Shown piece by piece: positions 46,115-61,890 of a stretch of 64,000 nucleotides of DNA. The translations under genes and the position numbers were made by a program. The notes under the pieces are model-generated. The model was not told the origin of the DNA. It was given only the letters and a program-made list of their open reading frames with translations, and searched no databases. Source of the DNA: an uncultured Actinomycetes bacterium. Lineage in GTDB: Bacteria > Actinomycetota > Thermoleophilia > Gaiellales > JAICJC01. Position 1 is the first letter of the stretch; the number at the start of each line of letters is the position of its first letter. The stretch is taken from positions 9,843 through 73,842 of the forward strand of contig CAWJLQ010000006.1 of the NCBI GenBank assembly GCA_963843705.1, in the 5' to 3' direction.

Positions 46115-47287
46115 CTAGGCCCGCGCGCCCGGCCCGTAGGCGAGGCGCAGCAGGCGGCCCTCGGCGAAGCGCCCGGGGCGCAGCTCGGAGACGTCGACGG
46201 GGGGTGTGCGGCCGGTGATCTCGGCCGCCACCACCTCGCCGACGGCGGGAGAGAGCTTGAAGCCGTGGCCGCTCCAGCCGACGGCCAGGTAGAGGCCCTC
46301 GATACCGGGGCACGGGCCGAGGATCGGATTCCAGTCGGGCGTGATGTCGTACGGCCCGGCGAACGCGCGCTCGACCCGGAACTCGGCCAGGCCCGGATAG
46401 CGCTCGGCGAGGCCGCGGCGCACGACCTCGTCGTAGCCCGGCGAGGCGGCGTGGTCGCAGTCGTCGGCGCGGGCGAGGGCGTCCTCGCCGGCATAGGCGA
46501 CGGCGCAGAAGCGGCGGCCGCGGTCGGGCCGCACGACGACGTTCGACACGGCGTCCGAGCAGACGGCCGACGGCAGCGTCTGGCCCGGCTCGCGGCAGGC
46601 CACGAGCACCTGCAGGCGGCGCAGCTCGATCGGCTGCTCCGCGCCGACGGGCCGCAGCAGGTCGTTCGCCCACGCGCCGGTGGCGAGGACGACGGTGCCC
46701 GCCGCGGTGAACCCGGCGTCGGTCTCGACGCCCGTCACCCGGCCGGCCTCGACGCGCAGGGCGCGCACGCCGCAGCCGAGCCGGTGGTGCAGGCCGCGCG
46801 AGCACGCGGCCGTGAACCATCCCAGGCACATCTTCTGGGCGTCGGCGAAGCCGCCGTCCGGCTCGTAGGCGGCGCCGGCGACGCCGTCGAGCGACAGCGC
46901 CGGCTCCACGTCGCCGATCTCGTCCGGTTGGAGGAACCGCGTCTCCAGGCCCAGCCGGCGGAGGCGATCGACGTTGTCGCGGCAGGCCGCCTCCAGCCGC
47001 TCGGGCACGGTCAGCAGGTAGCCGCAGCGCACGTAGCCGGAGTCGGCGACGCCGACCTCGTTCTCCCAGTCGGCGATGGTGCGTGTCCCGGCGATCGCGA
47101 GGCGGGCGGTGACCGCGTTCGAGTAGTGGCGGCGCACCATCGAGAAGGAGCGGCCGGAGTCGCCCGAGCCGGGCCAGGCGCTGTCGAACAGGGCGATGCC
47201 CCGGTGGCCGTCGCGCGTGAGCGCGTGGGCCGTCGCGAGGCCGTTGATCCCCGCGCCGACGATGACGATCTCGGCGGAGTCGATCAC
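46115..47287 (-). CDS. FAD-dependent oxidoreductase (DAO family; sarcosine/glycine/D-amino-acid oxidase-like)
   Basis: Dinucleotide fold EIVIVGAGINGLATAHAL and a DAO-type body. GTG 47287 is chosen. The 43-codon upstream extension would collide with the divergent BMC operon start. There is no clear SD sequence. Confidence 0.85.
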   Translation of the reverse strand: MIDSAEIVIVGAGINGLATAHALTRDGHRGIALFDSAWPGSGDSGRSFSMVRRHYSNAVTARLAIAGTRTIADWENEVGVADSGYVRCGYLLTVPERLEAACRDNVDRLRRLGLETRFLQPDEIGDVEPALSLDGVAGAAYEPDGGFADAQKMCLGWFTAACSRGLHHRLGCGVRALRVEAGRVTGVETDAGFTAAGTVVLATGAWANDLLRPVGAEQPIELRRLQVLVACREPGQTLPSAVCSDAVSNVVVRPDRGRRFCAVAYAGEDALARADDCDHAASPGYDEVVRRGLAERYPGLAEFRVERAFAGPYDITPDWNPILGPCPGIEGLYLAVGWSGHGFKLSPAVGEVVAAEITGRTPPVDVSELRPGRFAEGRLLRLAYGPGARA

Positions 47288-47308
47288 GGACGCAACGCTA
47301 CACGGAGA

Positions 47309-47351: not shown

Positions 47352-47395
47352 GGACCAATAGCTGGTATTTGCTTTTTGGTCTGGTATTCGGTACG
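47352..47395. promoter_or_regulatory. AT-rich candidate promoter/operator of the BMC operon
   Basis: CTGGTATT occurs twice (47362-47369 and 47381-47388), and ACCA-N5-TGGT lies at 47354-47366. This is the only AT-rich patch in the 127-bp divergent region and sits 20-60 nt upstream of ATG 47415. Confidence 0.4.
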
Positions 47396-47414: not shown

Positions 47415-48710
47415 ATGTACGACTACGGCTTCTTCTCCTACGAGTCCAAGGACGACTTCCTCGACCGGTCGCGGGAGTTCTGGAATCCCGACAAGACCGA
47501 CTTCTGGCAGGAGGCCGGCGTCGACCTCGTCATCGACCGGCGCGAGGGCTACTTCTTCTGGGACATGGCCGGCCGTCGGCTGGTCGACCTGCACCTGAAC
47601 GGCGGCACGTACAACCTCGGCCACCGCAATCCGGAGCTGATCGCCACGCTCGAGCAGGCGATGCAGCGCTTCGACATCGGCAACCACCACTTCCCGGCGC
47701 TCGCCCGCACCGCGCTGGCCGAGGCGCTGGTGAAGACCTGTCCGCCGAACATGCGCCGCGTCGTCTACGGCGCCGGCGGCGGCGAGGCGACCGACATCGC
47801 CATCAAGACCGCCCGCCACACCCGCAAGCGGCGCAAGATCGTCTCGATCCTGAAGGGCTACCACGGCCACACCGGCCTCGCCGTCGCGAGCGGCGACGAC
47901 CGCTTCTCGAAGCTCTTCCTGTCCGACCGCCCGGACGAGTTCGTGCAGGTGCCGTTCAACGACGTGGACGCGATGGAGGGCGCACTGCGCGAGGGCGACG
48001 TGGCCGCCGTCCTGCTCGAGACGATCCCCGCCACCTACGGCTTCCCGCTGCCGGAGCCCGGCTACCTGCAGGCGGTGAAGCGCCTGTGCGAGCGATTCGG
48101 CGCGCTCTACATCGCCGACGAGGTGCAGACCGGCCTCATGCGCACGGGGGAGATGTGGGGGATCGCGAAGGCGGGCATCGAGCCGGACATCATGGTGATC
48201 GGCAAGGGCATCACCGGCGGCATGTACCCGATCTCGTGCGTGGTCGTCTCCGAGGAGTGCTCGGCGTGGCTGAAGGAGGACGGCTTCGGCCACATCTCGA
48301 CGGGCGGCGGCGCCGAGCTCGGCTGCATCGTCGCGCTCAAGGTGCTCGAGATCTGCGGCCGGCCGGAGGTGCGCTCGATGGTGCACTACATCGCCGACCG
48401 GTTCGGCCGCGGGCTGCGCGCGATCCAGGAGCTCTACCCGGACTGGTTCGTCGGCATCCGCCAGGACGGCGTCGTCATGGGGCTCGAGTTCGACCACCCG
48501 CAGGGCGCAAAGATCGTCATGAAGCACCTGTACGAGAACGGCGTCTGGGCGATCTTCTCGACGCTCGACCCGCGCGTGCTCCAGTTCAAGCCCGGCATCC
48601 TGCTCGGCCCCGAGCTGGTCGACGAGGTGCTCGACCGCACCGAGGTCTCGATCGGCCAGGCGCTGCAGGAGCTGCGCGGCGGGCGCGCGGCGGTGGGGGC
48701 GGCGCGGTGA
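47415..48710 (+). CDS. Class-III PLP aminotransferase-fold enzyme (candidate amino-alcohol O-phosphate phospho-lyase of the BMC pathway)
   Basis: Aminotransferase class III pattern: LNGGTYNLGHRNPE, YGAGGGEATDIAIK, LYIADEVQTGLMRTG, and the PLP lysine in MVIGKGITGG. It is the first gene of the BMC operon. Confidence 0.88.
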   Translation: MYDYGFFSYESKDDFLDRSREFWNPDKTDFWQEAGVDLVIDRREGYFFWDMAGRRLVDLHLNGGTYNLGHRNPELIATLEQAMQRFDIGNHHFPALARTALAEALVKTCPPNMRRVVYGAGGGEATDIAIKTARHTRKRRKIVSILKGYHGHTGLAVASGDDRFSKLFLSDRPDEFVQVPFNDVDAMEGALREGDVAAVLLETIPATYGFPLPEPGYLQAVKRLCERFGALYIADEVQTGLMRTGEMWGIAKAGIEPDIMVIGKGITGGMYPISCVVVSEECSAWLKEDGFGHISTGGGAELGCIVALKVLEICGRPEVRSMVHYIADRFGRGLRAIQELYPDWFVGIRQDGVVMGLEFDHPQGAKIVMKHLYENGVWAIFSTLDPRVLQFKPGILLGPELVDEVLDRTEVSIGQALQELRGGRAAVGAAR

Positions 48711-50212
48711 GCGCGGTCGCCGCCGAGCCGGCCGGCGTCCCCCGCGCCCGCATGATGCTCCAGCGCGCCCACTGGGCGGCGACGGCCTTTGCCGCGTACG
48801 ACCGCGAGCGCACGCACCGGATCGTCGAGGCGGTGGCCGAGGAGGCGCACCGCAACGCCCTGCGCTACGCCGAATGGGCGGTCAAGGAGACGGGCATGGG
48901 CGTCGTCGAGCACAAGCGGCGCAAGAACGAGGCGTGCTCGAAGGGCCTGCTCGAATGGTACGGCGGCCGCGACTACGTGAGCGCCCGGATCGACCCCGAC
49001 GCGAAGATCGTCGAGCTGCCCCGGCCCGCCGGCGTCGTGCTGGCGCTGACGCCGTCGACGAACCCGATCGCCACCGTGTACTTCAAGGTGCTGCTGGCGC
49101 TCATGACCCGAAACGCCGTCGTCGTCAGCCCGCACCCGCTGGCCCGCGAGGTGTCGGCCGATGCCGCCCACCATCTCGCCCGGGCCGCGGTCGAGGCCGG
49201 CGCGCCCGACGGCTGCGTGCAGGTCGTCGAGGAGCCGACGATCCCGCTGATCGAGGCGCTCATGGGCGACCCGACCACCGACGTGATCCTGGCGACGGGC
49301 GGCGTCGCCGTCGTCCGCGCCGCGTACCGCTCCGGGAACCCGGCCATCGGCGTCGGCCCCGGCAACGTGCCGTGCCTGGTCGACCACACCGCCGACCTGG
49401 GCGCGGCCGCCGAGCGGCTGATGGACTCGAAGAGCTTCGACAACTCCATCCTGTGCACGAACGAGTCGTGCGCGATCGTCGAGGAGCGCTGCGCGGCCGC
49501 GTTCGAGCGCGAGCTCGGCCGCCACGGCGGCCATGTGCTCTCGGAGGACGAGGTGGCGATCGTGCGCGAGAAGCTCTTCCCGGAGGGCCGGATGCGGCTC
49601 GACATGATCGGCAAGGACGGCCCGGCGCTGGCCGCCGAGGCCGGGCTCCGCGTCCCGCCGAAGACGCGCGTGCTGGTCGCGCCGTTCGCGCTGGTCGTGC
49701 CGGAGGAGCCGCTGGCGCGCGAGAAGATGTTCCCGCTGCTCGGCCTCGTGCGGGTGCCGGACGCGCGCCGCGGCATCGACGCCGCCTGCGCCATGCTGCG
49801 CATCGGCGGCGCCGGCCACTCGGCCGTGATCCACTCGCGCGACCCGCGCACGATCATGGCCTATGGGGCCGCGGTCAAGGTGCTGCGGGTGGCGGTGAAC
49901 GTCGGCGGCAGCACCGGCTCGGCGGGGCTCGACACGAATCTCGCCCCGACGATGACCATCGGCACCGGCTTCTACGGCCGCTCGTCGCTGGGCGAGAACC
50001 TGGAGCCGCGCCACCTGATCAACCTGACCCGGGTCGCCTATACCTCCGACCCGTCCGAGCCGTTCGGCGACTTCACCGGCCTGGAGCCGTGGACGGCGTC
50101 GCCCGAGCCCGTGCCGGTCGCCGCACCGGCGCTGTCGGCCGAGGCGAGCGACGCCCGCGAGGAGATCCGCCGGATCGTCCTCGAGGAGCTCCGTGAGCTG
50201 GTGAGGAGGTAG
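48707..50212 (+). CDS. CoA-acylating aldehyde dehydrogenase (PduP/EutE-like) with C-terminal encapsulation-peptide-like helix
   Basis: Motifs LTPSTNPIATV, GVGPGNVP and the catalytic Cys in FDNSILCTNESC. A Pro-rich linker precedes the amphipathic tail REEIRRIVLEELRELVRR (about 50156-50209). GTGA overlap with the upstream stop. Confidence 0.9.
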   Translation: MSAVAAEPAGVPRARMMLQRAHWAATAFAAYDRERTHRIVEAVAEEAHRNALRYAEWAVKETGMGVVEHKRRKNEACSKGLLEWYGGRDYVSARIDPDAKIVELPRPAGVVLALTPSTNPIATVYFKVLLALMTRNAVVVSPHPLAREVSADAAHHLARAAVEAGAPDGCVQVVEEPTIPLIEALMGDPTTDVILATGGVAVVRAAYRSGNPAIGVGPGNVPCLVDHTADLGAAAERLMDSKSFDNSILCTNESCAIVEERCAAAFERELGRHGGHVLSEDEVAIVREKLFPEGRMRLDMIGKDGPALAAEAGLRVPPKTRVLVAPFALVVPEEPLAREKMFPLLGLVRVPDARRGIDAACAMLRIGGAGHSAVIHSRDPRTIMAYGAAVKVLRVAVNVGGSTGSAGLDTNLAPTMTIGTGFYGRSSLGENLEPRHLINLTRVAYTSDPSEPFGDFTGLEPWTASPEPVPVAAPALSAEASDAREEIRRIVLEELRELVRR

Positions 50213-50215
50213 GCC

Positions 50216-50821
50216 GTGGCCGAGCTGCGCTCCTTCATCTTCCTCGACCAGCTGCAGCCCCAGACCATGTGCTACCTGGGCACGTGGATCCGCGGCCGGC
50301 TTCCGCGCACGAACATGGCCGCGCAGATCATCGAGATCGCGCCCGGCCTCGACATCGAGCCGCTGACCGACGTCGCCCTCAAGTCGACCGAGGTGCAGGC
50401 CGGGATCCTGGTGGTCGAGCGCCAGTTCGGCTACCTCGAGATCCACTCCCGCTCGACGGCGGAGGTGCACGCCGCCTCGAGCGCCGTGCTCGAGGCGCTC
50501 GGCGCGACCGCCGCGGATGCGATGCAGCCGCAGATCCTGGCGTCCGAGATGATCACGAACCTCGACCACCAGCACGCGTTCCTGATCAACCGCAACAAGC
50601 TGGGCTCGATGGCGCTGCCCGGCGAGTCGCTGTTCGTGCTCGAGATGCAGCCCGCGTCGTACGCGATCCTGGCCACGAACGAGGCGGAGAAGGCGGCCCG
50701 GATCAAGGTGGTCGACTACCGCATGATCGGCGCCACCGGCCGCGTCTACCTGGCCGGCATGGAGGCCGACGTGCGCACGGCCGGCGACGCCGCCGTGGCG
50801 GCGCTCGGAGGTGCGGTGTGA
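50216..50821 (+). CDS. BMC-T shell protein (tandem BMC domains), copy 1
   Basis: Two PF00936-like halves: IIEIAPGLDIEPLTDVALKSTEVQAGILVVERQFGYLEIHS and LFVLEMQPASYAILATNEAEKAARIKVVDYRMIGATGRVYLAG. GTG follows GAGGAGG. Confidence 0.85.
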   Translation: MAELRSFIFLDQLQPQTMCYLGTWIRGRLPRTNMAAQIIEIAPGLDIEPLTDVALKSTEVQAGILVVERQFGYLEIHSRSTAEVHAASSAVLEALGATAADAMQPQILASEMITNLDHQHAFLINRNKLGSMALPGESLFVLEMQPASYAILATNEAEKAARIKVVDYRMIGATGRVYLAGMEADVRTAGDAAVAALGGAV

Positions 50822-51462
50822 GCACGCCCGACGACGCCGACCAGCTGCGCAGCGTCACCCGCGAGGTGCTGGCGGAGCTCCTGCCGGGCCTGCTCGAGGA
50901 GGCGCTCACCGCGCAGCCGGCGACCAACGGCAACGGCAACGGCGGTGGGGCCAGGCCCCAACCGTTGGGGCCTGGCCCCGCTTCTGCGCCGCCAGAGGCC
51001 GTCGCCCGCGTGCCGGCGCCGCCGGTGGCGGCAGTCCACCGCCCGCCCGGCTGGCGGCCTCCGCCCGAGTCCGACACGACGCCCGCGCCAATTGGCGCTG
51101 CCGGGGTGCGCCAATTGGCGGCCGCGGCCGACGTCGAGGTGGTCGACCTGCGCAGCGACGCCGACCTGGACGCGTTCGTGCGCACGCTCGTGCGCCGGTT
51201 CGAGAACCCGCGCGACCGCATGGCGATCCGCTCGGGCAAGGTGCGCTTCCGGCTCGGCGCAACGGCTTCAGGCTCCGCCGCCGCCCCTGCGCCGGCCGTC
51301 GTCATGCGGATCGAGAAGGGCGCGGTGACCGAGCGCACCGTGCGCGACGCGGCCGCGGCCGGCGCCCGGCTCGTGCTCGCGCCGAAGGCGGTGCTGACGC
51401 CGATGGCGCGCGACCGCGCCCGCAGCCTGGGAGTCGAGATCGAGAAGGAGCGGCCATGCTGA
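50818..51462 (+). CDS. BMC-locus protein of unknown function (N-terminal amphipathic helix, low-complexity linker, small C-terminal domain)
   Basis: It has a GTGA start overlap and an ATGCTGA end overlap with the flanking shell genes. The N-terminus is DQLRSVTREVLAELLPGLLEEAL, followed by an NGNGNG/Pro-rich linker. The C-terminal domain ends AVLTPMARDRARSLGVEIEKE. Confidence 0.75.
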   Translation: MSTPDDADQLRSVTREVLAELLPGLLEEALTAQPATNGNGNGGGARPQPLGPGPASAPPEAVARVPAPPVAAVHRPPGWRPPPESDTTPAPIGAAGVRQLAAAADVEVVDLRSDADLDAFVRTLVRRFENPRDRMAIRSGKVRFRLGATASGSAAAPAPAVVMRIEKGAVTERTVRDAAAAGARLVLAPKAVLTPMARDRARSLGVEIEKERPC

Positions 51463-51698
51463 GAGCGACCGTGACCGGCGCAGTCTGGGCGACCAAGCGG
51501 ATCGAGCACATCCCGAGCGGCGCCTTCCTCGAGGTCGAGGCGGAGGGCGGCGGCCGGCTGGTGGCCTTCGACGTGCTCGGAAGCGGCGTGGGCGAGCGCG
51601 TCCTGATCGCCACCGGCTCCGTCGCCTCGGGGTGGTTCGGCGACGAGCATCCGCCGATCGACGCACTCATCATCGGATCCATCGACGAACGCGAATAA
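51456..51698 (+). CDS. BMC-P pentameric vertex protein (EutN/CcmL family)
   Basis: 80 aa: MLRATVTGAVWATKRIEHIPSGAFLEVE...VAFDVLGSGVGERVLIATGSVAS...IDALIIGSID. Confidence 0.9.
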   Translation: MLRATVTGAVWATKRIEHIPSGAFLEVEAEGGGRLVAFDVLGSGVGERVLIATGSVASGWFGDEHPPIDALIIGSIDERE

Positions 51699-51707
51699 GG
51701 AGGAGTC

Positions 51708-51992
51708 ATGGCGCAGAACGCAATCGGGATGATCGAGACCAAGGGCTACGTGGCGGCGCTGGCGGCCGCGGACGCGATGGTCAAGGCGGCGAACGTCACC
51801 ATCCTCGCCCGCGAGGAGGTCGGCGACGGGCTGGTGTCGGTCGTCATCCAGGGCGACGTCGGCGCGGTCAAGGCCGCGACGGAGGCGGGCGCAGAGACGG
51901 CCTCGAGCGTCGGCGAGCTGGTCTCCGTGCACGTGATCCCGCGGCCGCACGCGGAGCTCGACAAGCACTTCGTCCACGCCGTCACGGCGTAG
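51708..51992 (+). CDS. BMC-H hexameric shell protein (PduA/EutM/CcmK-like)
   Basis: 94 aa: [61 protein letters not shown] is a canonical PF00936 domain. Confidence 0.95.
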
Positions 51993-51995
51993 CGC

Positions 51996-52643
51996 GTGGC
52001 CGGGCCCGACACCGCGGTGCAGCTGCGGGTCTACCTGCCGATCGCCAACCTGGGCCGGCAGTTCGCCGCCTACCTGGGCACGCCCACGCGCGCCCGCGGC
52101 TACCCGGCGGTTCAGGGCGACCATGCGCTGATCGTCGAGGTGGCGCCGGCGCTCGCGATCGAGCGCGTCACCGATCTCGCGCTGCGGTCGGTGCCCGAGA
52201 TCGAGCCCGGCATCCTCTACGTCGAGCGCCAGTTCGGCGTGCTCGAGGTGCACCACCGCGACCAGGCGCTGGTCGACCGGGCCGGCCAGGCCATCCTCGC
52301 CGGCATCGGGGCGACGCCCGCGGACGCCCTGCGTCCGCGTATCCTCTACGCCGACGTGATCGAGGACATCACCGACCAGCACGCGGTGATCATCAACCGC
52401 AACCGCGAGGCGTCGATGGTGCTGCCGGGCGAGACGCTGCTCGTCTACGAGGTGGTGCCGGCGCTGCACGCCGCCGTCGCGGCGAACGCGGCCGAGCGGG
52501 CGGCGCCCGAGGCGACCCTGGTCACGGTGTCGATGATCGGCGCGGCCGGGCGCATCTACCTCGCCGGCGCGACCGAGAGCGTCGTGCGGGCACGGGACGA
52601 GATCACGCGGGTGCTCGAGGCGGTGGAGGGCCGTGAGCACTGA
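51996..52643 (+). CDS. BMC-T shell protein (tandem BMC domains), copy 2
   Basis: Paralogous to copy 1: LIVEVAPALAIERVTDLALRSVPEIEPGILYVERQFGVLEVHH and LLVYEVVPALHAAVAANAAERAAPEATLVTVSMIGAAGRIYLAG. Confidence 0.85.
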   Translation: MAGPDTAVQLRVYLPIANLGRQFAAYLGTPTRARGYPAVQGDHALIVEVAPALAIERVTDLALRSVPEIEPGILYVERQFGVLEVHHRDQALVDRAGQAILAGIGATPADALRPRILYADVIEDITDQHAVIINRNREASMVLPGETLLVYEVVPALHAAVAANAAERAAPEATLVTVSMIGAAGRIYLAGATESVVRARDEITRVLEAVEGREH

Positions 52644-53619
52644 TCAGGCGGCGATCGACCGCCTGGCCGCCGCCGCCATCGGAAGCTACGACCTCGACCC
52701 GTCGTCCTCCGTGGGCTTGATCAACGTCTCCGAGAACTGGACCTACCGGGTGCAGGAGCCCGACGGGCGTGCCTTCGCCCTGCGCGTGCACCGGCCGACG
52801 TACCACACCGCGGAGGAGATCGCCTCGGAGCTCGACTGGATCGACGCGCTGCGCGACGACCGCGTCGTCGAGACCGCCCACGCCGTCGCCGGGCGCGCCG
52901 GCGGCCGCGTCTGCCAGGTGCGCACCGACGACCTGGGCGAGCGCAACGTCGTCCTCTTCGAGTGGCTCGACGGCGAGATGCCCGACGCCGACGCCCACGA
53001 CCTGCTGCCCGGGTTCCGCACGCTGGGCGCGGTCTCGGCGCGGATGCACGGCCATGCCCGCGCCTGGACACCGCCGGCGGGGTTCGCGCGGTTCCGGTGG
53101 GACTACGACACCACCCTGGGCGCACACGGCCACTGGGGCCGCTGGCAGGACGGGCTCGGCATGGGCCCGTCCCAGCTCGACCTGCTCGGACGGCTCGACG
53201 CGACGTTGCGGCAGCGGCTCGAGGCGTATGGCCAGGGACACGAGCGCTTCGGCCTCATCCACGCCGACATCCGGCTCGCGAACCTGCTCGTCGCCGGCGA
53301 GCACGTGCGCGTGATCGACTTCGACGACTGCGGCTGGTCGTGGTTCATGTACGACTTCGCGACCACCGTGTCGTTCATCGAGGACCACCCGGACGTCCCC
53401 CGGCTGAAGCAGGCCTGGATCGAGGGCTACCGCTCGGTCGCCGGCCTTGACCCGGCCGACGAGGCCGAGCTGGACACGTTCGTGATGCTGCGGCGGCTGC
53501 TGCTCGTGGCCTGGATCGGCTCGCACCACCTGTTCGCGACCGAGGCGGCCGAGCTCGGCGCCGGCTTCACCGAGGGCACGTGCGCGCTGGCCGAGACGTA
53601 CCTGGCCACGCACGCCTGA
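52633..53619 (+). CDS. APH-fold (aminoglycoside phosphotransferase family) kinase, candidate amino-alcohol kinase
   Basis: Catalytic loop LIHADIRLANLLV and metal-binding VIDFDDCG. GTG overlaps the BMC-T2 end by 11 nt. Confidence 0.88.
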   Translation: MSTDQAAIDRLAAAAIGSYDLDPSSSVGLINVSENWTYRVQEPDGRAFALRVHRPTYHTAEEIASELDWIDALRDDRVVETAHAVAGRAGGRVCQVRTDDLGERNVVLFEWLDGEMPDADAHDLLPGFRTLGAVSARMHGHARAWTPPAGFARFRWDYDTTLGAHGHWGRWQDGLGMGPSQLDLLGRLDATLRQRLEAYGQGHERFGLIHADIRLANLLVAGEHVRVIDFDDCGWSWFMYDFATTVSFIEDHPDVPRLKQAWIEGYRSVAGLDPADEAELDTFVMLRRLLLVAWIGSHHLFATEAAELGAGFTEGTCALAETYLATHA

Positions 53620-53624
53620 ACGGG

Positions 53625-53990
53625 CTACTTGATGTTGACGACGAGCCGCAGCCGGCCCGAGCGCGGCACGTGGATCGTCCGCGGAACGGGTTGGATCGGC
53701 CGCCCGTCCGCCTGCGGGCCGCCCGAGGTGATCGTCACCCGGTACGTGCCGGGCGCCAGCTCGATCGCAAAGCGCCCGGCCGTGCCGGTGCGCACGGCGG
53801 CCGAGCCGTCCGTGCCGGTGAACCGCAGGTGGACGCCCCCGAGCAGGACTGGCCCCGCCGGGCGCGGGGCCGCCGACGCGCACGAGCTGGCCATGCGTCC
53901 GGACGAGGTGGTGAGCCGACCCGCCGCCGCATCCGGACACGAGGAGCGCAGACCATCACGGCCGCTGCGCGGAACCAATTCATGTCGCAT
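53625..53990 (-). CDS. Small carboxypeptidase-regulatory-like beta-sandwich domain protein
   Basis: The C-terminal 75 aa (VHLRFTGTDGSAAVRTGTAGRFAIELAPGTYRVTITSGG...IHVPRSGRLRLVVNIK) fit the CarboxypepD_reg/Big-like pattern. The N-terminus and start (ATG 53990 or the internal ATG) are uncertain, and no clear signal peptide is seen. Confidence 0.5.
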   Translation of the reverse strand: MRHELVPRSGRDGLRSSCPDAAAGRLTTSSGRMASSCASAAPRPAGPVLLGGVHLRFTGTDGSAAVRTGTAGRFAIELAPGTYRVTITSGGPQADGRPIQPVPRTIHVPRSGRLRLVVNIK

Positions 53991-54050
53991 TGGACCGTAG
54001 AATGGGCCGCCCAGTTCCACCATCGCCATCGATCGCACGAGGAGGAGCAG

Positions 54051-54833
54051 ATGTTCACCCCACTCACCGGCCGGACCGTTCTCGTCACCGGCGGCACCAA
54101 GGGCATCGGCAAGGGCATCGCGGGCGAGTTCGCGGCGGCGGGGTGCAACGTCGCCCTGAGCGGCCGCGGTGAGCAGGCGGGCGAGACGGCGGTGCGCGAC
54201 CTGTCCGCCCGCGGCGGTCACGTCTCCTACTACCAGGGCGACGTCGGCAATGCGGACGACTGCGAGCGGGTGGCGGCCGAGGTGGCCTCCCGCTACGGCG
54301 GCATCGACATCGTCTGCGCCAACGCCGGCGTGTTTCCGGACGTGAAGCTGGCGGACATGACCGAGGCCGACATCGACGCCATCTTCGCCACGAACGTGAA
54401 GGGCACGATGCTGACCGTGAAGGCGTGCATCCCCTACCTGGAGGCGTCCGGCCACGGCCGCGTGATCCTGACGAGCTCGATCACCGGACCGATCACGGGC
54501 TTCCCGGGCTGGTCGCACTACGGCGCCACCAAGGCCGCCCAGCTGGGCTTCCTGCGCACGGCGTGCATCGAGCTCGCGCCGAAGCGGATCACCGTGAACG
54601 CGGTGCTGCCCGGCAACGTCGAGTCCGAGGGCATGGACGAGCTCGGGGCCGAGTACCGCGCGTCGATGGAGGCGTCCATCCCGCTGGGGCGGCTCGGCTA
54701 CCCGTCCGAGATCGGTGCGGCCGCGGTCTTCCTCGCCACCGACGAGGCGGGCTACATCACCGGCCAGACGATCGTGGTCGACGGCGGCCAGGTGCAGCCC
54801 GAGTCGCTGGCGGCGCTCCAGGCGGCGCAGTAG
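54051..54833 (+). CDS. Short-chain dehydrogenase/reductase (candidate aminopropanol/aminoacetone dehydrogenase)
   Basis: Motifs TGGTKGIGKG, NAG and YGATKAA (YxxxK). ATG follows GGAGGAG. Confidence 0.9.
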   Translation: MFTPLTGRTVLVTGGTKGIGKGIAGEFAAAGCNVALSGRGEQAGETAVRDLSARGGHVSYYQGDVGNADDCERVAAEVASRYGGIDIVCANAGVFPDVKLADMTEADIDAIFATNVKGTMLTVKACIPYLEASGHGRVILTSSITGPITGFPGWSHYGATKAAQLGFLRTACIELAPKRITVNAVLPGNVESEGMDELGAEYRASMEASIPLGRLGYPSEIGAAAVFLATDEAGYITGQTIVVDGGQVQPESLAALQAAQ

Positions 54834-54849: not shown

Positions 54850-55644
54850 GTGACCGAGCCCGTCCCCGGACTGCCGGCCGCCTTCGCGCCCCTGGGCCCG
54901 TCGGCATCGGCCCTGCGCGACCGGCTGATGGCCGAGATCGAGGCCGGCTCGCCGCCGCCCGGCGCCCGTCTGGGCGCCGAACGCGAGCTGGCGGCGCGGC
55001 TGGGCGTCAGCCGCTCGACGCTGCGGGCCGCTCTGGACTCGCTCGAGACGGCCGGGGCGGTGCACCGCGTACGCGGCCGAAGCGGCGGCATCTTCGTCTC
55101 CGAGCGCCGGGTGGAGCGCGACCTGACGAGCCTCACCAGCCTGCCCGCGTACCTGCGCCGGCAGGGCTTCCAGTCCGGCGCGCGGGTGCTTTCGACGGCC
55201 ACCGTGGGCGCCGACGCCGAGACGGCCGAGGCGCTCGACCTGCCCCAGGGCGCGCTCGTGCTCGAGGTCGTGCGGGTGCGTCTGGCCGACGAGCAGCCGA
55301 TCTCGCTCGAGCGGGCGCGCTTCCCGGCCGAGCGCTTCCCCGGGCTGCTCGACCGGTCGCTGGCGGGATCGCTGTACGAGCTGCTCGAGTCGGGCTACGG
55401 CCTGCGTCCCAGCGAGGCCGAGGAGCGGGTCGAGGTGGTGGGGGCGACCGCTGCCGAGGCGCGCGTGCTCGAGGTGAGGCCGGGCGCGCCGCTGGTCGCG
55501 ATCGTGCGCACGGCGTGGGCCGCCGACGGCCGGCCGTTCGAGCGCTCCCACGACCTGTTCCGCGCGGATCGCGTCCGCATCGTCACCCGCGTGCGCACCG
55601 CCGATCCGGCGGCGCTCGGCAGCTCGGTCGAGGTGGTCGGGTGA
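54850..55644 (+). CDS. GntR-family transcriptional regulator, HutC subfamily (wHTH + UTRA)
   Basis: wHTH is GAERELAARLGVSRSTLRAALDSLETAGAVHRVRGRSGGIFV, followed by a C-terminal UTRA-like effector domain. Starts at GTG 54850. Confidence 0.85.
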   Translation: MTEPVPGLPAAFAPLGPSASALRDRLMAEIEAGSPPPGARLGAERELAARLGVSRSTLRAALDSLETAGAVHRVRGRSGGIFVSERRVERDLTSLTSLPAYLRRQGFQSGARVLSTATVGADAETAEALDLPQGALVLEVVRVRLADEQPISLERARFPAERFPGLLDRSLAGSLYELLESGYGLRPSEAEERVEVVGATAAEARVLEVRPGAPLVAIVRTAWAADGRPFERSHDLFRADRVRIVTRVRTADPAALGSSVEVVG

Positions 55645-56735
55645 GTGTGGACGGCGAGCGCATCGCGCGCTACGCCGACGTGCTCCTCGACACCTGCCTC
55701 GGCGTGCAGCCGGGCTGGCAGGTGCTCGTCTGGGGGACGCCGCTGGCGAGGCCCCTGCTCGAGGTGGTGATGGCGAAGCTCGCGCGGGGCGGCGCGTATC
55801 CGCTCCTTCGGCTGACCTTCGGCGGCGGGCTCGTGTACCACCACGCCTGGCTGCGGCATGCGCCGCTGGACGTGATCGCACGCCCGGCCGAGATCGAGGC
55901 CGACGTGCTGCGCCGGTGCGACGCCGTGCTCGCGATCGGCGCGCCCGAGGACACCCGAGCGGGCGCCGACATCCCCGCCGAGCGCGCGAGCGCCGTCGCC
56001 GCGGCCTACCGGCCGGCCACGGCGCGGCTCGAGGAGAACGAGGTGCCCTGGCTCATGTGCTGGTATCCCACGCCGGCGCTCGCGGCCGACGCCGGCATGA
56101 CGCTGGCCGAGTTCGAAGACTTCCTCTACGGGGCCTGCCTGGTCGACTGGGAGGCCGAGCACGCGCGCATCTCCCGATACGCCCGGAGCTTCGATGCCGC
56201 CTCCGAGGTGCGCATCGCCGGCCCCGGCACCGACCTCGTGCTCTCGATCGCCGGCCGCAGCGCCGACGTCGACGCCGGGTTCGGCAACATGCCCGGCGGC
56301 GAGCTCTTCCTGTGCCCCGTCGAGACCTCGGCGGAGGGCACGATCGCCTTCACCGAGTTCGCGGCGGTGCGCGCCGGCCGCCGGGTGCGTCGCGTGCGCC
56401 TGCGGTTCGCCGAGGGCGTGGTGGTCGACGCGGGGGCAGAGACCGAGGAGGCGTTTCTGCTGGACACGCTCGACACCGATCGGGGCGCACGCCGGATCGG
56501 CGAGCTCGGGATCGGCTGCAACCCGGGGATCGACCGGCACGTCGGCAACGTCCACTTCGACGAGAAGATCGACGGCACCGTGCACCTCGCGCTCGGGTCG
56601 GGCTTCGCCTACCTCGGCGGCACGAACGAGTCGGCCGTGCACTGGGACATCGTGAAGGACCTGCGCCGGGGCGGCCGCATCGAGCTGGACGGCCTGGTCG
56701 TGCAGGCGAACGGCGTCTGGCTGCCGGCTGAATAA
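55641..56735 (+). CDS. M29 family aminopeptidase (AmpS/PepS-like)
   Basis: Motifs RYADVLLDTCLGVQPG, NMPGGELF, IGELGIGCNPGI and FDEKIDGTVHLALGSG. GTGA overlap with the GntR stop. Confidence 0.85.
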   Translation: MSVDGERIARYADVLLDTCLGVQPGWQVLVWGTPLARPLLEVVMAKLARGGAYPLLRLTFGGGLVYHHAWLRHAPLDVIARPAEIEADVLRRCDAVLAIGAPEDTRAGADIPAERASAVAAAYRPATARLEENEVPWLMCWYPTPALAADAGMTLAEFEDFLYGACLVDWEAEHARISRYARSFDAASEVRIAGPGTDLVLSIAGRSADVDAGFGNMPGGELFLCPVETSAEGTIAFTEFAAVRAGRRVRRVRLRFAEGVVVDAGAETEEAFLLDTLDTDRGARRIGELGIGCNPGIDRHVGNVHFDEKIDGTVHLALGSGFAYLGGTNESAVHWDIVKDLRRGGRIELDGLVVQANGVWLPAE

Positions 56736-56895: not shown

Positions 56896-57849
56896 ATGGC
56901 CGATCATCTGATCACCCGCGACATGCCCACCCACAGCAGCTGGGACGTGGGCACCGAGCCGGTGGTGCGGATCCGCTCGGGCGACATCGTCACCGCTGAC
57001 ACCGACGACTTCGCCGGCGGCCAGATCACCCGCGGCTCGATCTCTGCCGACCTGCCCAAGCTCGACTTCGGCCAGATCTACCCCCTGGCGGGGCCGATCC
57101 ACGTCGAGGGCGCAGAGCCGGGCGACGCCGTCGCGATCGAGTTCGTCGAGTTCGAGCCGCCGGAGTGGGGCTGGGCCTGCATCATCCCCGGGTTCGGCGT
57201 CCTGCCGCCGGACGAGTTCACCGAGCCCTACATCAAGTTCTTCGACATGACGAACGGCTCGACGATGGCCTTCTGCGAGGGCGTGACGCTCCCGATCGAG
57301 CCCTTCTGCGGCACCACGGGCGTGCCCGGCGCCGGGATGCACGGCGTGCCGATCCCGCCGCCGCACTCGCACGGAGGCAACATCGACATGCGCCACCTCA
57401 CCAGGGGCTCGACGCTCTACCTGCCGGTGGGCGCCCCGGGCGGGCTCATCTCGCTCGGCGACGCGCATGCCGCCCAGGGCGACGGCGAGGTGGCCATCTC
57501 CGGGGTCGAGTGTGCGATGCGCACGACGATGCGGATCTCGGTCGTGAAGGACATGCGTCTGCGGACGCCGGCGCTGCGCAAGCCGCCGGGCTCGCTGACT
57601 CCCCGCGTCGACTCGGGCGGGTGGTTCGCCACCACCGGCGTCGAGCCGGATCTGATGGAGGCGTCCCGCTCGGCCGTGCGCGCGATGATCGACCACCTCG
57701 GCTCCGAGCGCGGGCTGTCGCGCCAGGACGCGTACATGCTGTGCTCGCTGGCGGCCGACCTCAAGATCATGGAGGTGGTCGACGCGCCGAACTGGATCGT
57801 GGGCTGCTTCATGCCCGACGCGGTGTTCACGAACGGGGAGGTTGGCTGA
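56896..57849 (+). CDS. Acetamidase/formamidase family amidohydrolase
   Basis: Motifs PLAGPIHVEGAEPGDAV, HGGNIDMRHL, GDAHAAQGDGEV and APNWIV; FmdA/AmdA pattern. Confidence 0.88.
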   Translation: MADHLITRDMPTHSSWDVGTEPVVRIRSGDIVTADTDDFAGGQITRGSISADLPKLDFGQIYPLAGPIHVEGAEPGDAVAIEFVEFEPPEWGWACIIPGFGVLPPDEFTEPYIKFFDMTNGSTMAFCEGVTLPIEPFCGTTGVPGAGMHGVPIPPPHSHGGNIDMRHLTRGSTLYLPVGAPGGLISLGDAHAAQGDGEVAISGVECAMRTTMRISVVKDMRLRTPALRKPPGSLTPRVDSGGWFATTGVEPDLMEASRSAVRAMIDHLGSERGLSRQDAYMLCSLAADLKIMEVVDAPNWIVGCFMPDAVFTNGEVG

Positions 57850-58301
57850 TGAGCGAGCACGAGGTGCAGTTGCGGGAGGCGCTGGAGCGGCTGGCGGAGC
57901 ACGACGGCGGACGGCGGCTGCTGCAGCTCGCCCTGCGCAGCATCGAGTCGGGCGACCGGGAGCTGGTCTCCGGGTGCTGGACGAACCGGGGCGACGCGGG
58001 CTGCCTCTTCCAGCACGCGTACTGGCAGGGCGTCGCCGACGGCGCGTTCGCCGACGACGGCAAGGTGCGCGCCTGGGTGAGCGGCGTCGCCGGCCGGCGC
58101 GCCTACCACCGGGTGATCGACGTGATCGCGGCCTTCGACCGCCTTGCGCGGGCGGAGTACGCCGTCGAGCTGCGCCGGTTCCGGCCGCCAGTGCTCCACA
58201 CCGAAGCCTGGAGAGCGCGCGTCGCCGGCCTGCTCGTCGAGGTGCTCGGGACGGACGGCGATCGCGCCGAGGCCGTCCGCCGTCCGCTGCAGACGGCGTA
58301 G
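57849..58301 (+). CDS. Hypothetical protein coupled to the formamidase (150 aa)
   Basis: TGATG overlap with the formamidase stop. Composition is ordinary (MSEHEVQLREALERLAEHDGG...CWTNRGDAGCLFQHAYWQG...). I recognise no family. Confidence 0.55.
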   Translation: MSEHEVQLREALERLAEHDGGRRLLQLALRSIESGDRELVSGCWTNRGDAGCLFQHAYWQGVADGAFADDGKVRAWVSGVAGRRAYHRVIDVIAAFDRLARAEYAVELRRFRPPVLHTEAWRARVAGLLVEVLGTDGDRAEAVRRPLQTA

Positions 58302-58431: not shown

Positions 58432-60039
58432 ATGAGCAGTGAAGGCGGAGGCATGCATGAGCATCACGAGGGCATGCTTCCCGTGGTCGACAGCGTCGAC
58501 GTCTCGACCCGTGAGGACGTGCACAAGCTGCACGGCGGCGCGGTCGGCCTGCTGGGAGTGCTCTTCCTGACCGTGACCGGCTCGGCGCCGATCTCGGCCA
58601 TGCTCTTCAACACGCCGCTCTCGGCCGGCTACGGCAACGGGATCGGCACGCCGGCCGGCTTCATGGTGGCCACGATCGTGCTGACCATCTTCTCGGTCGG
58701 CTACGTGGCCATGTCCCGCAAGGTCACCGCGGCGGGCGGCTTCTACAGCTTCATCAGCCACGGCCTCGGCCGCGAGCTGGGGATGGCGTCCGGCCTGGCG
58801 ATGGTGGCCGCGTACTCCGTCTTCGAGGTGTCGCTCGTCGGCGGCTTCTCCTACTTCGCCACCGCCAAGCTCGCCCAGTACGGCTATCACGTGTCGTGGT
58901 ACTGGCCGGGCCTGTTCATGATCGCCCTGATCTCGGTGCTGGCCTACTTCGACGTGCACATCTCGGCCCGCGCCCTCGGCATCGCGCTGATCGGGGAGAT
59001 CATCCTGCTCGTGATCTTCGACCTGGTCGTGTTCGGCCACGGCGGCAACAACGTGCAGGCGGGGGCGATCAACCCGCTGAACGCGTTCAAGAGCCTGCCG
59101 GCGGGACACGACGGCGGGACGGCGATCGCGGCGGGCGCCGCCGGGATCGGCATCTTCTTCGCCTTCTGGTCGTGGGTCGGGTTCGAGATGGCCCCGAACT
59201 ACGCCGAGGAGTCGAAGAACCCGAAGAAGATCGTACCGCGGGCGATGTACATCTCGGTCATCGGCCTCGGCGTCTTCTACACCATCACGTCGTGGGCGGC
59301 GATCTCCGGCTACTCGAGCACCGAGGCGGCCGCGAACGTCGCGCAGAACAACGCCGCGGAGTTCTTCTTCATCCCGGCCAAGCAGTACGGGAACGAGCTC
59401 CTGAAGGACCTGCTGAGCTACTTCATCATCACCGGCTCGTTCGCCTGCGGCATGGCGTTCCACAACACCACCGCCCGTTACATGTACTCGCTGGGCCGTG
59501 AGGGCGTGCTGCCGCGGCCGCTGGGCCGCACCCATGCGCGCCACCGCAGCCCGCACATCGCCTCGATCACCCAGTCGGTGATCGCGGTGCTGATCGTGAT
59601 CGCGTTCGTCGCGTTCGCCCATGTGACGAAGGGCTCGACCGCCGCCAACGACGTCGCCTACATCCAGGTCTACGGCCTGATGGCGGTGATGGGCGTGGTG
59701 TCGATCCTGGCCATCCAGGCGCTGGTCTCGATCGCGATCCTGAACTACTTCCGCACGCACCACGCGGACGAGCATCACTGGTGGACGACCACCCTCGCGC
59801 CGATCATCGGCGCGATCGCCCAGGTGTACGTGCTCTACCTGGCGATCCACAACCTCGACTTCCTCGGTGCCGGGTCATATCCGTACGCGAGGTGGCTGGT
59901 GTGGGGTGATGTGGTGATCTTCGCCGGCGGCCTCGCCTTCGCCTTCTACCTGAAGTCGAACGACCGGGCCAAGTACGAGACCATCGGACGCATGATCAAC
60001 GAGGGGCTCGACCACGAGCTCTCGCCGTCCGGCGACTGA
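58432..60039 (+). CDS. APC-family amino acid/amine permease
   Basis: About 12 TM helices. The N-terminal region is LLGVLFLTVTGSAPISAMLF...GGFYSFISHGLG. ATG follows GAGGGAGG. Confidence 0.9.
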   Translation: MSSEGGGMHEHHEGMLPVVDSVDVSTREDVHKLHGGAVGLLGVLFLTVTGSAPISAMLFNTPLSAGYGNGIGTPAGFMVATIVLTIFSVGYVAMSRKVTAAGGFYSFISHGLGRELGMASGLAMVAAYSVFEVSLVGGFSYFATAKLAQYGYHVSWYWPGLFMIALISVLAYFDVHISARALGIALIGEIILLVIFDLVVFGHGGNNVQAGAINPLNAFKSLPAGHDGGTAIAAGAAGIGIFFAFWSWVGFEMAPNYAEESKNPKKIVPRAMYISVIGLGVFYTITSWAAISGYSSTEAAANVAQNNAAEFFFIPAKQYGNELLKDLLSYFIITGSFACGMAFHNTTARYMYSLGREGVLPRPLGRTHARHRSPHIASITQSVIAVLIVIAFVAFAHVTKGSTAANDVAYIQVYGLMAVMGVVSILAIQALVSIAILNYFRTHHADEHHWWTTTLAPIIGAIAQVYVLYLAIHNLDFLGAGSYPYARWLVWGDVVIFAGGLAFAFYLKSNDRAKYETIGRMINEGLDHELSPSGD

Positions 60040-60047
60040 CCGCCAGC

Positions 60048-60087
60048 GGCGGTGGTGTACGGCCCCTCGGGGCCCTACACCACCGCC
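60048..60087. terminator. Strong bidirectional hairpin between convergent genes
   Basis: GGCGGTGGTGTACGGCCCC (60048-60066) pairs with GGGGCCCTACACCACCGCC (60069-60087), with 18 of 19 positions complementary and loop TC. Confidence 0.65.
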
Positions 60088-60746: not shown

Positions 60747-60757
60747 CGGGCCCCCCA

Positions 60758-60783
60758 AGTTGTAGGACAACTCGGTATGATAC
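60758..60783. promoter_or_regulatory. Candidate GntR operators in a divergent region
   Basis: The perfect palindrome AGTTGT-AGG-ACAACT (60758-60772) is followed by GTAT-G-ATAC (60775-60783). Confidence 0.4.
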
Positions 60784-60819
60784 TGGCTCGAACGGTTCTG
60801 TGCGACGAGGGAGGCGGCG

Positions 60820-61878: not shown

Positions 61879-61890
61879 GATGGGCGGCCC

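Follow-up and report, generated by a model that had tools for sequence, protein, structure and literature searches.

The operon and its gene products

We analysed a stretch of 64,000 nucleotides from contig CAWJLQ010000006.1 of an uncultured Actinomycetes bacterium (hereafter the window; G+C content of 74%), in which a model reading of the letters (the original prediction) had placed a complete bacterial microcompartment (BMC) operon of the Rhodococcus/Mycobacterium microcompartment (RMM) or aminoacetone type. Window positions are used throughout. The list of open reading frames (ORFs) and the family searches identified ten co-directional genes on the plus strand between 47415 and 55644, with an amidase and an APC permease gene downstream. 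The ten genes are given below in order.

47415..48710, plus strand: AT3, signature enzyme of the class III pyridoxal phosphate (PLP) fold, positional counterpart of msmeg_0277 of Mycobacterium smegmatis (PF00202, 1e-66)
48707..50212, plus strand: CoA-acylating aldehyde dehydrogenase (ALDH) with a P/A-rich linker and a C-terminal helix resembling an encapsulation peptide (EP), the helix at about 50153-50209 (PF00171, 5e-24)
50216..50821, plus strand: tandem-domain shell protein BMC-T(dp) "a", or BMC-T(a), orthologue of MSM0275 (PDB 5L39, 2.5e-90; NCBIfam CcmP, 1e-65)
50818..51462, plus strand: Unk214, a conserved RMM-specific protein of 214 aa in the position of msmeg_0274, with no Pfam, NCBIfam or PDB sequence match
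51456..51698, plus strand: BMC-P pentamer (vertex), orthologue of MSM0273 (PF03319, 7e-18; PDB 5L37, 1e-33)
51708..51992, plus strand: BMC-H hexamer (facet), 94 aa, orthologue of MSM0272 (PF00936, 3e-27; PDB 5L38, 3e-41)
51996..52643, plus strand: BMC-T(dp) "b", or BMC-T(b), orthologue of MSM0271 (PDB 5SUH, 3.7e-88; NCBIfam CcmP, 5e-53)
52633..53619, plus strand: kinase of the aminoglycoside phosphotransferase (APH) fold, orthologue of the M. smegmatis (S)-1-amino-2-propanol kinase (PF01636, 6e-27; PDB 6EF6, 9e-87)
54051..54833, plus strand: short-chain dehydrogenase/reductase (SDR), orthologue of the M. smegmatis (S)-1-amino-2-propanol dehydrogenase/aminoacetone reductase (adh_short_C2, 2e-59; PDB 6CI8/6CI9, 8e-97)
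54850..55644, plus strand: GntR regulator of the HutC subfamily, with a winged helix-turn-helix and a UTRA effector domain (PF07702, 4e-42; PF00392, 1e-14)

The eight co-directional ORFs of the original prediction, followed by the SDR, GntR and APC permease genes, were all present on the plus strand, and direct reading of the sequence reproduced its overlapping start and stop codons exactly. These comprise GTGA between AT3 and the ALDH (48707-48710) and again between BMC-T(a) and Unk214 (50818-50821), ATGCTGA between Unk214 and BMC-P (51456-51462), and an overlap of 11 nt between BMC-T(b) and the kinase (52633-52643). The ALDH and BMC-T(a) are joined by a TAG, a gap of 3 nt (50213-50215) and a GTG (50210-50218), and the junction of BMC-H with BMC-T(b) has the same form (51990-51998; gap 51993-51995). 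A ribosome-binding site, AGGAGGAG, precedes the ATG of BMC-H at 51708. The G+C content at third codon positions (GC3) is ~0.95 across the ten ORFs, which supports them as real genes, and all are full-length compared with their solved orthologues. The continuity of the operon is broken by a 432-bp gap between the kinase and the SDR (53620-54050).

Searches with PF00202, PF00171, PF03319 and PF01636, proposed earlier as a check, all returned the matches listed above. The original prediction had also taken a match to the shell family PF00936 as the mark of the 94-aa and ~200-aa shell proteins. The 94-aa protein bears this mark (3e-27); for the ~200-aa proteins, BMC-T(a) matched with the second of its two domains only (31 bits), and BMC-T(b) gave no match in the Pfam search at E<=0.01. 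The PF00936 test is too strict for these two proteins: judged by their CcmP and PDB sequence matches, both are unambiguously the tandem-domain BMC-T proteins that had been predicted.

Classification of the microcompartment

The shell proteins, the kinase and the SDR are each the one-to-one reciprocal best match of a solved M. smegmatis RMM protein. The two BMC-T(dp) proteins are clearly told apart in the PDB sequence search, with BMC-T(a) matching MSM0275 (5L39) at 2.5e-90 and MSM0271 at 1.9e-45, and BMC-T(b) matching MSM0271 (5SUH) at 3.7e-88 and MSM0275 at 5.5e-40; in each case the correct match exceeds the cross-match by ~45 orders of magnitude. The best PDB match of BMC-P is 5L37 (MSM0273), and the best natural-protein match of BMC-H is 5L38 (MSM0272), an engineered tandem BMC-H fusion (6NER) scoring higher at 1.9e-50. 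The interface (facet) motifs KAAN and PRPH of BMC-H are present in the translation as VKAANV and IPRPH. The alignment of the kinase with 6EF6 covers residues 11-326 of 328 and that of the SDR with 6CI8/6CI9 residues 1-256 of 260, and neither enzyme has a terminal extension.

The gene table of the 2021 catalogue of microcompartment loci lists msmeg_0269 as the SDR and also as the APH kinase (one tag for both), msmeg_0271 and msmeg_0275 as BMC-Tdp, msmeg_0272 as BMC-H, msmeg_0273 as BMC-P, msmeg_0276 as ALDH, msmeg_0277 as the class III aminotransferase and msmeg_0279 as the permease. The order in the window (AT3, ALDH, BMC-T(a), unknown, BMC-P, BMC-H, BMC-T(b), APH kinase, SDR) is the exact mirror of msmeg_0277 to msmeg_0269, in agreement with the mirrored gene set originally proposed.

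Published RMM1 loci contain one BMC-H, one BMC-P, two different BMC-Tdp, a class III aminotransferase, an ALDH, an APH kinase, an SDR, a GntR and a permease, and no phosphotransacylase (PTAC) or alcohol dehydrogenase (AlcDH) (Axen et al., 2014; 2021 catalogue). The window locus holds one single-domain PF00936 protein, one PF03319 protein and two different BMC-T(dp) proteins of the CcmP/CsoS1D type, together with the PF00202 enzyme, an acylating ALDH with a terminal helix, the APH kinase and the SDR; the regulator (GntR with UTRA, 54850-55644) and the transporter (AA_permease_2, 58432-60039) are also present. The gene order is that of RMM1 rather than RMM2 and is the same as in every actinobacterial locus retrieved. 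The accessory Abhydrolase_3 family (PF07859), which has been reported for mycobacterial RMM1, gave no match in the Pfam search of the genes in 42-64 kb; its role is occupied by an FmdA/AmdA amidase and an M29 peptidase, a non-core feature. Because of the one-to-one orthology and the mirrored msmeg_0269-0277 order, we assign the locus to RMM1/AAUM1. Judged from its sequence, it is of this type by every published compositional criterion, with best matches to MSM0271-0275 serving as a proxy for the trees of the catalogue.

Host and phylogenetic spread

With BMC-T(a) as the query, species-representative genomes yielded at least 539 matching stretches, and the best 80 of these are the loci to which the counts out of 80 below refer. 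They derive mostly from metagenome-assembled genomes (MAGs) of Gaiellales, Thermoleophilia and Solirubrobacterales, together with the cultured genera Nocardioides, Planosporangium and Kineosporia; Nocardioides islandensis KCTC 19275, N. agariphilus and Planosporangium flavigriseum are among the cultured strains that have the locus. The closest homologues of Unk214 carry the name Gaiellales bacterium, and the region 41.6-62 kb of the window shows ~84-86% DNA identity to several MAGs of the Gaiellales type, so that the locus and its flanks are vertically conserved in this lineage. The suggestion that the host belongs to an actinobacterial lineage other than Mycobacterium was thus borne out, the nearest genomes being Gaiellales/Thermoleophilia MAGs, and with it the claim of an RMM/aminoacetone-type operon outside Mycobacterium, which the reciprocal best matches and the mirrored order also support.

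The ten-gene order recurs in essentially all of the actinobacterial relatives retrieved (Gaiellales, Solirubrobacterales, Nocardioides, Planosporangium, Kineosporia and Acidimicrobiia). The operon opens with AT3 in 69/80 loci, at 70-96% identity; the SDR lies directly 3' of the kinase in 66/80 and the GntR directly 3' of the SDR in 62/80, and an APC permease is found in 46/80. In two loci from MAGs labelled as proteobacteria, the kinase and the SDR precede the PLP enzyme. Four MAGs labelled Bifidobacterium breve (L073), Alphaproteobacteria (L044), Pseudomonadota (L058) and Gemmatimonadota (L072) encode a BMC-T(a) ~80% identical to the actinobacterial protein. The actinobacterial gene order of L073 and L072 suggests mis-binning or recent transfer.

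The 2021 catalogue counts 140 loci of RMM1/AAUM1 in "various Actinobacteria and Proteobacteria". A non-mycobacterial host of an RMM is thus already published, and the window is an expansion of the known range. The names Gaiella, Solirubrobacter and Thermoleophilia do not occur in those supplementary trees of the catalogue that were examined, and a search for open papers tying microcompartments to these taxa found none. The Thermoleophilia are abundant and poorly cultured soil actinobacteria, in which the RMM locus is vertically conserved and very widespread. With at least 539 matching stretches set against 140 catalogued loci, organelle-based catabolism of aminoacetone or amino alcohols may be a common soil trait.

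The signature enzyme

The PLP enzyme was aligned with E. coli GabT, E. coli PatA and twelve orthologues from different lineages, and residues are numbered as in GabT. The PLP-binding residues are all retained (Lys268, which forms the Schiff base, Asp239, Gln242, Glu206 and Thr297). Arg398, which in GabT binds the alpha-carboxylate of the keto-acid or amino-acid partner and is also Arg in PatA, is replaced by Gln, and this change is invariant in 13 lineages. Two further replacements, Glu211 to Thr and Arg141 to His, are likewise invariant in the 13 lineages. The same Arg is absent from the EP-tagged class III enzyme of the RMM-type locus of Rhodococcus jostii, which has Lys instead.

These data bear on whether the enzyme is a real aminotransferase, as Axen et al. 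(2014) proposed. It would then convert aminoacetone to methylglyoxal, which the shell would confine, and the ALDH would form a pyruvyl or lactoyl thioester. Consistent with such a route, the closest solved homologues are all genuine transaminases (PigE, PatA, and the ornithine and acetylornithine aminotransferases), no phospho-lyase was found among the best 60 PDB matches, and NCBIfam aminotransferase models match (1e-45 to 1e-61), as does PF00202. None of the NCBIfam models, however, reaches its equivalog cut-off. Arg398 and Glu211 are replaced in every lineage examined, and transamination would leave a strictly co-conserved kinase, the orthologue of which is named (S)-1-amino-2-propanol kinase, without a role. 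We consider a transaminase route to be quite improbable.

The phospho-lyase route is favoured over the 2014 methylglyoxal route because of the change of Arg398 to Gln in combination with the strictly co-conserved kinase. The class III fold includes known lyases (ETNPPL, its paralogue and PbfA). We infer that AT3 acts as a 1-amino-2-propanol O-phosphate phospho-lyase, a role reached by elimination. The phospho-lyase step of the original prediction is thereby supported by the residue analysis and stops short of proof; in the literature, too, it is apparently an inference, for which the cross-lineage comparison offers support at the level of the sequence.

Cargo targeting and shell assembly

The ALDH matched the NCBIfam AdhE-ALDH domain (7e-120) and acetylating ACDH (7e-105) models, and AdhE and acetylating ALDHs in the PDB (1e-82 to 4e-84). 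The sequence REEIRRIVLEELRELVRR, read earlier as an amphipathic helix, is the true C-terminus of the enzyme. A helix of the form REE(I/L)RR-h-h-h-EELR after the P/A-rich linker is present in 64/69 orthologues, from Gaiellales to the MAGs labelled as proteobacteria, so the orthologues do not lack the terminal helix, a lack that would have spoken against the prediction. Its amphipathicity did not stand out. The hydrophobic moment of the ALDH helix was 0.45, compared with 0.32±0.16 for composition-matched shuffles, and that of an N-terminal helix in Unk214 was 0.30, compared with 0.25±0.12; neither difference is significant. Amphipathicity was thus not used as evidence, and position, linker, conservation and mutual alignment were used instead. 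In one MAG of the Gaiellaceae type (L021, 8478-10000), the ALDH is apparently frameshifted, with the C-terminal 70 residues out of frame and the helix lost, which is probably an indel of the long-read assembly.

An ORF lies between BMC-T(a) and BMC-P in 78/80 loci. Unk214, its product in the window, begins with an EP-like helix (residues 4-31, LRxVxREVLxELLP), after which a disordered P/A/G/N linker of variable sequence leads to a middle domain that is small and folded (105-147). Its C-terminal module (~161-210, GAVTE...VLTPLARDxARxLGVxIE) is highly conserved. The AlphaFold2 pLDDT over the folded C-terminal half is 75-94. The family comprises 610 cluster representatives at 50% identity, and the 150 representatives listed share one architecture, with lengths of 82-286 aa and the conserved part at the C-terminus. 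No significant match was found in Pfam, NCBIfam or the PDB sequences; the weak Pfam scores were CoA_binding_2 (0.07) and PDU_like/PduM (0.17). Foldseek gave nothing below E 0.01, the best match being the C1 subdomain of IF2 (E 0.015). The homologue in the same slot of R. jostii RHA1 (WP_011600239.1, a 145-aa "hypothetical protein"; E 2e-16) has the same N-terminal helix.

Profile alignment with hhalign paired the N-terminal helix of Unk214 with the C-terminal helix of the ALDH (Prob 68%, E 5e-5), and the C-terminal module with residues 3-45 of E. coli EutQ (Prob 85.7%, E 5.5e-6, 34% identity over 41 columns of a short, A/R-rich module). In a control set of 92 (27 proteins of E. coli and 65 gene segments of the window), no non-self match other than EutQ exceeded Prob 16, and the N-terminus of EutT came next (Prob 15%). 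The cupin domain of EutQ (PF06249) gave no Pfam match in Unk214, which resembles EutQ in the short module only and is outside the EutQ family as Pfam defines it.

In a 2025 study in Salmonella, the H1/H2 region of EutQ (residues 9-41) was found to bind the Eut shell and the downstream region to bind cargo targeting peptides, EutQ being essential for encapsulation. We tentatively propose, at somewhat under even odds, that the Unk214 family (including the protein at the msmeg_0274 position and WP_011600239.1) is a dedicated shell-cargo tether of RMM/AAUM compartments, the match behind this being short, compositionally biased and not backed by a structure. The C-terminal module, resembling EutQ H1/H2, would dock on the shell, while the N-terminal helix and the middle domain would gather cargo, including the proposed PLP lyase, which lacks such a peptide itself. 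If this is true, the EutQ-type linker module would be a portable assembly device common to unrelated metabolosome types, and RMM shell assembly would follow the "shell-initiated, linker-mediated" logic recently shown for Eut. Unk214 is a concrete and testable candidate for cargo recruitment, and genetics are available in M. smegmatis.

Cofactor supply

No PTAC (PF06130/PF01515), PduL or iron-dependent alcohol dehydrogenase was found by Pfam among the genes in 42-64 kb, and neither a PTAC nor an AlcDH was among the 25 strongest Pfam families listed for the other 38 gene segments. The original prediction that no phosphotransacylase or alcohol dehydrogenase is encoded nearby holds for the operon; outside it, a zinc-dependent medium-chain dehydrogenase/reductase (Zn-MDR) gene lies at 60853-61878, with L-threonine 3-dehydrogenase as its best model (161 bits against a cut-off of 380 bits). 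The original prediction had marked the missing recycling enzymes for a second look. Their absence is an RMM-wide feature rather than a peculiarity of the window, stated in 2014 together with speculation about a permeable shell (Axen et al., 2014), and RMM cofactor recycling was again listed as unresolved in a 2024 paper.

Two candidates for an internal NAD+ recycler were considered and rejected. The Zn-MDR has no terminal extension or EP, a gene on the opposite strand lies between it and the operon, and with its own GntR and an FGGY kinase downstream it looks like part of a polyol unit. Its possible role as a supplier of aminoacetone, if it is a threonine dehydrogenase, is a lead only, the score being far below the cut-off. 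The SDR has no targeting peptide, and the VALSGRG motif that follows its second beta-strand hints at NADP(H) as the cofactor.

Operon integrity and control

A 19-nt operator- or promoter-like element lies upstream of AT3:

47376..47394, plus strand: TTGGTCTGGTATTCGGTAC, 21 nt upstream of the AT3 start

With <=3 mismatches allowed, the element was found at no other place in the window (0 expected), and it hardly varies among the Gaiellales loci, where it precedes AT3. Palindromes of the TGGTC(A/T)GACCA type occupy this site in other lineages, which are typical of HutC-type operators, and the element is a candidate binding site for the HutC-type GntR of the locus. Axen et al. (2014) cite work in Rhodococcus in which amino-2-propanol induced the SDR through a GntR. 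No riboswitch or other RNA family was found by Rfam in 40-64 kb, and scans for consensus sigma-70 promoters and intrinsic terminators were empty.

The locus shows two local rearrangements:

53625..53985, minus strand: antisense gene for a small lipoprotein, broken by two frameshifts, which interrupts the ancestral operon at the kinase-SDR junction
55641..56735, plus strand: M29 aminopeptidase (PF02073, 7e-48), with a GTGA overlap with the GntR stop

The pieces of the lipoprotein gene lie in three frames and encode a lipobox (LVSGC) and a C-terminus resembling a beta-sandwich. Intact homologues of ~110 aa with a lipobox are present in three related loci (L003, L005 and L008), and the window copy is either a pseudogene or the product of assembly indels. 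The kinase and the SDR are separated by 12-50 nt in most lineages. A conserved non-coding block upstream of the SDR, ATTGGACCGTAGAATGGGCC (54000-54020), is found in the relatives with the antisense lipoprotein gene and in L007, which has a kinase-SDR gap of 87 nt; it looks like a newly recruited promoter. The M29 gene is a clean 1.08-kb insertion, as the homology with L002 and L007 ends at 55644 and resumes at ~56727, and no homologue was found in the 80 related loci.

A pseudogene within the operon and a foreign gene after the regulator are what might be expected of a decaying or silent relic from which no compartment is made. Against this, the ten RMM ORFs are intact and full-length with the GC3 given above, translational coupling is kept, and the sub-clade with the antisense gene has the conserved promoter-like block before the SDR. 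A pseudogenised locus was rejected on the intactness of all ORFs, and a relic in the wider sense is, in our estimate, highly improbable.

Neighbouring genes

The genes that flank the ten-gene run include the following.

46115..47293, minus strand: FAD-dependent oxidoreductase of the DAO family, divergent from AT3 (PF01266, 2.7e-61; NCBIfam soxB family, 4e-37, below cut-off)
56896..57849, plus strand: amidase of the acetamidase/formamidase (FmdA/AmdA) family (PF03069, 1.5e-49)
57849..58301, plus strand: 150-aa protein with no Pfam or NCBIfam match, with a TGATG overlap with the amidase; present in 15/80 loci
58432..60039, plus strand: APC-superfamily amino-acid/amino-alcohol permease, counterpart of msmeg_0279 (PF13520, 5e-29)

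Homologues of the amidase lie beside the permease in 26/80 loci, including those of Nocardioides and Planosporangium (31-34% identity), which hints that the natural substrate arrives as an amide, a precursor of the amino alcohol. The DAO oxidoreductase is similar to sarcosine-oxidase-beta, N-methyl-Trp oxidase and D-amino-acid dehydrogenase. It adjoins AT3 in 17/80 loci, of the Gaiellales type only, and is not a core RMM gene; it may be co-regulated with the RMM operon.

The permease shows a weak likeness to the ethanolamine permease (TIGR00908, 7e-14, below cut-off), and a related locus on plasmid pRHL2 of R. jostii has a gene annotated as an ethanolamine permease and lacks an SDR in the 22 kb examined. 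Classical amino-alcohol kinase and phospho-lyase pairs of Erwinia and Pseudomonas (EC 4.2.3.2) act on both ethanolamine phosphate and 1-aminopropan-2-ol phosphate. The physiological substrate could accordingly be ethanolamine, or amino alcohols generally, in a B12-independent route from ethanolamine through phosphoethanolamine and acetaldehyde to acetyl-CoA, with aminoacetone or aminopropanol as one input. This is unlikely in our view. The SDR, which is needed for the entry of aminoacetone only, is co-conserved directly after the kinase in the majority of loci as counted above, the solved kinase and SDR orthologues are named for 1-amino-2-propanol, and the R. jostii class III enzyme is only 27% identical and may belong to a different functional subtype.

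Two further units flank the locus. Downstream (60075-63950) lie a NanE-like TIM-barrel gene on the minus strand, the Tdh-like Zn-MDR, a second HutC-type GntR and an FGGY sugar kinase, a unit that adjoins the RMM across Gaiellales and Solirubrobacterales in 31-48 of 80 loci. Upstream (42071-45123), an FGGY kinase of the glycerol type and a GlpD-like glycerol-3-phosphate dehydrogenase are syntenic in Gaiellales (<=35/80 and <=19/80, respectively).

Pathway model

We conclude, with a probability of about 0.82, that the locus is a complete and apparently functional RMM1/AAUM1 metabolosome operon of a Gaiellales-related member of the Thermoleophilia, operating as follows. A route from aminoacetone to propionyl-CoA is the proposal of the literature for the RMM. 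The APC permease would import aminoacetone or 1-amino-2-propanol, perhaps after its release from an amide by the amidase encoded alongside. The SDR would reduce aminoacetone to (S)-1-amino-2-propanol and the APH kinase would phosphorylate it, both in the cytosol and by orthology with the M. smegmatis enzymes, for which both activities have reportedly been shown, to judge from titles, PDB names and citing papers. The phospho-ester would then enter a shell made of one BMC-H, one BMC-P and two BMC-T(dp) proteins, within which the PLP enzyme, as a phospho-lyase, would release propionaldehyde, phosphate and ammonia. The encapsulated CoA-acylating ALDH is predicted from its family to trap the aldehyde as propionyl-CoA; it would be targeted by its C-terminal helix, and Unk214 may tether cargo to the shell. 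With neither a PTAC nor an AlcDH encoded, the compartment must either exchange NAD+ and CoA through its shell, with the two gated BMC-T(dp) trimers as the obvious candidate passages, or rely on some other recycling route. Until the amino alcohol is present, the HutC-type GntR probably keeps the operon repressed from an operator of the TGGTCT type ahead of the first gene.

Several points weigh against this interpretation. The enzyme functions at the locus are assigned by orthology and family, and the msmeg synteny rests on locus-tag numbers and PDB names. The nearest solved relatives of AT3 are transaminases rather than phospho-lyases, its proposed activity is an argument by elimination, and its location inside the shell is assumed, no recognisable encapsulation peptide having been found on it. 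The helices of the ALDH and Unk214 are no more amphipathic than their shuffles, and the operon encodes no recognised enzymes for cofactor recycling. The twice-frameshifted antisense gene lies within the operon, and owing to it, the SDR and the GntR may be expressed apart from the other genes.

Relation to known systems

The locus represents nothing new in kind, as RMM/AAUM loci are catalogued, their occurrence outside Mycobacterium is published and the missing recycling enzymes are a known puzzle; the EutQ-like reading of Unk214 is the most useful by-product of the analysis. The closest comparison is with M. smegmatis MC2 155 (Mycolicibacterium; msmeg_0269-0279), which has the same ten genes in mirrored order, an unnamed ORF at msmeg_0274 and no PTAC or AlcDH. 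The differences lie in the host of the window, a deep-branching member of the Thermoleophilia with a G+C content of 74%, in the antisense pseudogene that splits its operon, and in the accessory genes, which are an amidase, an M29 peptidase and a DAO oxidoreductase in the window and Abhydrolase_3 alpha/beta hydrolases in mycobacterial RMM1.

The locus on pRHL2 of R. jostii RHA1 (L084; NC_008270.1, 400544-408521) is related through its ALDH (49% identity), BMC-T(a) (74%), BMC-P (57%), BMC-H (80%), BMC-T(b) (65%) and kinase (40%). A GntR is present, and the Unk214 homologue lies between BMC-T and BMC-P. The gene order differs, however, and the block of BMC-T, hypothetical protein, BMC-P and BMC-H is duplicated. 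Its class III enzyme (535 aa) belongs to a different subfamily and has a C-terminal targeting helix of its own, REELRRLIVEELRGLI. Together with its annotated permease and the absence of an SDR, as described above, the locus may be a distinct ethanolamine-phosphate subtype.

The RMM2/AAUM2 loci of Proteobacteria have the same gene content, and L058 (Pseudomonadota) and L044 (Alphaproteobacteria) carry all of the core genes, including an Unk214 homologue. In these two, the PLP enzyme gene comes after those of the kinase and the SDR, as described for RMM2, whereas the window has the actinobacterial RMM1 order.

The Eut system is likewise an aldehyde-trapping metabolosome with an acylating ALDH that has a terminal targeting helix, and residues 3-45 of its EutQ align with the module of Unk214. 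It differs in its B12-dependent ammonia-lyase, in the internal recycling by EutD (a phosphotransacetylase) and EutG (an alcohol dehydrogenase), and in having no BMC-T(dp). The EutQ-like module of Unk214 is C-terminal, the aligned stretch of EutQ is N-terminal, and Unk214 is without a cupin/acetate-kinase domain.

Finally, the soluble kinase and phospho-lyase pathway (EC 4.2.3.2 type; the class III lyases ETNPPL/AGXT2L1 and PbfA) has the same proposed chemistry, in which phosphorylation is followed by a PLP-dependent 1,2-elimination to the aldehyde. In contrast to that pathway, the PLP enzyme of the window belongs to a distinct subfamily, nearest to the putrescine and ornithine aminotransferases, and is coupled to a protein shell.

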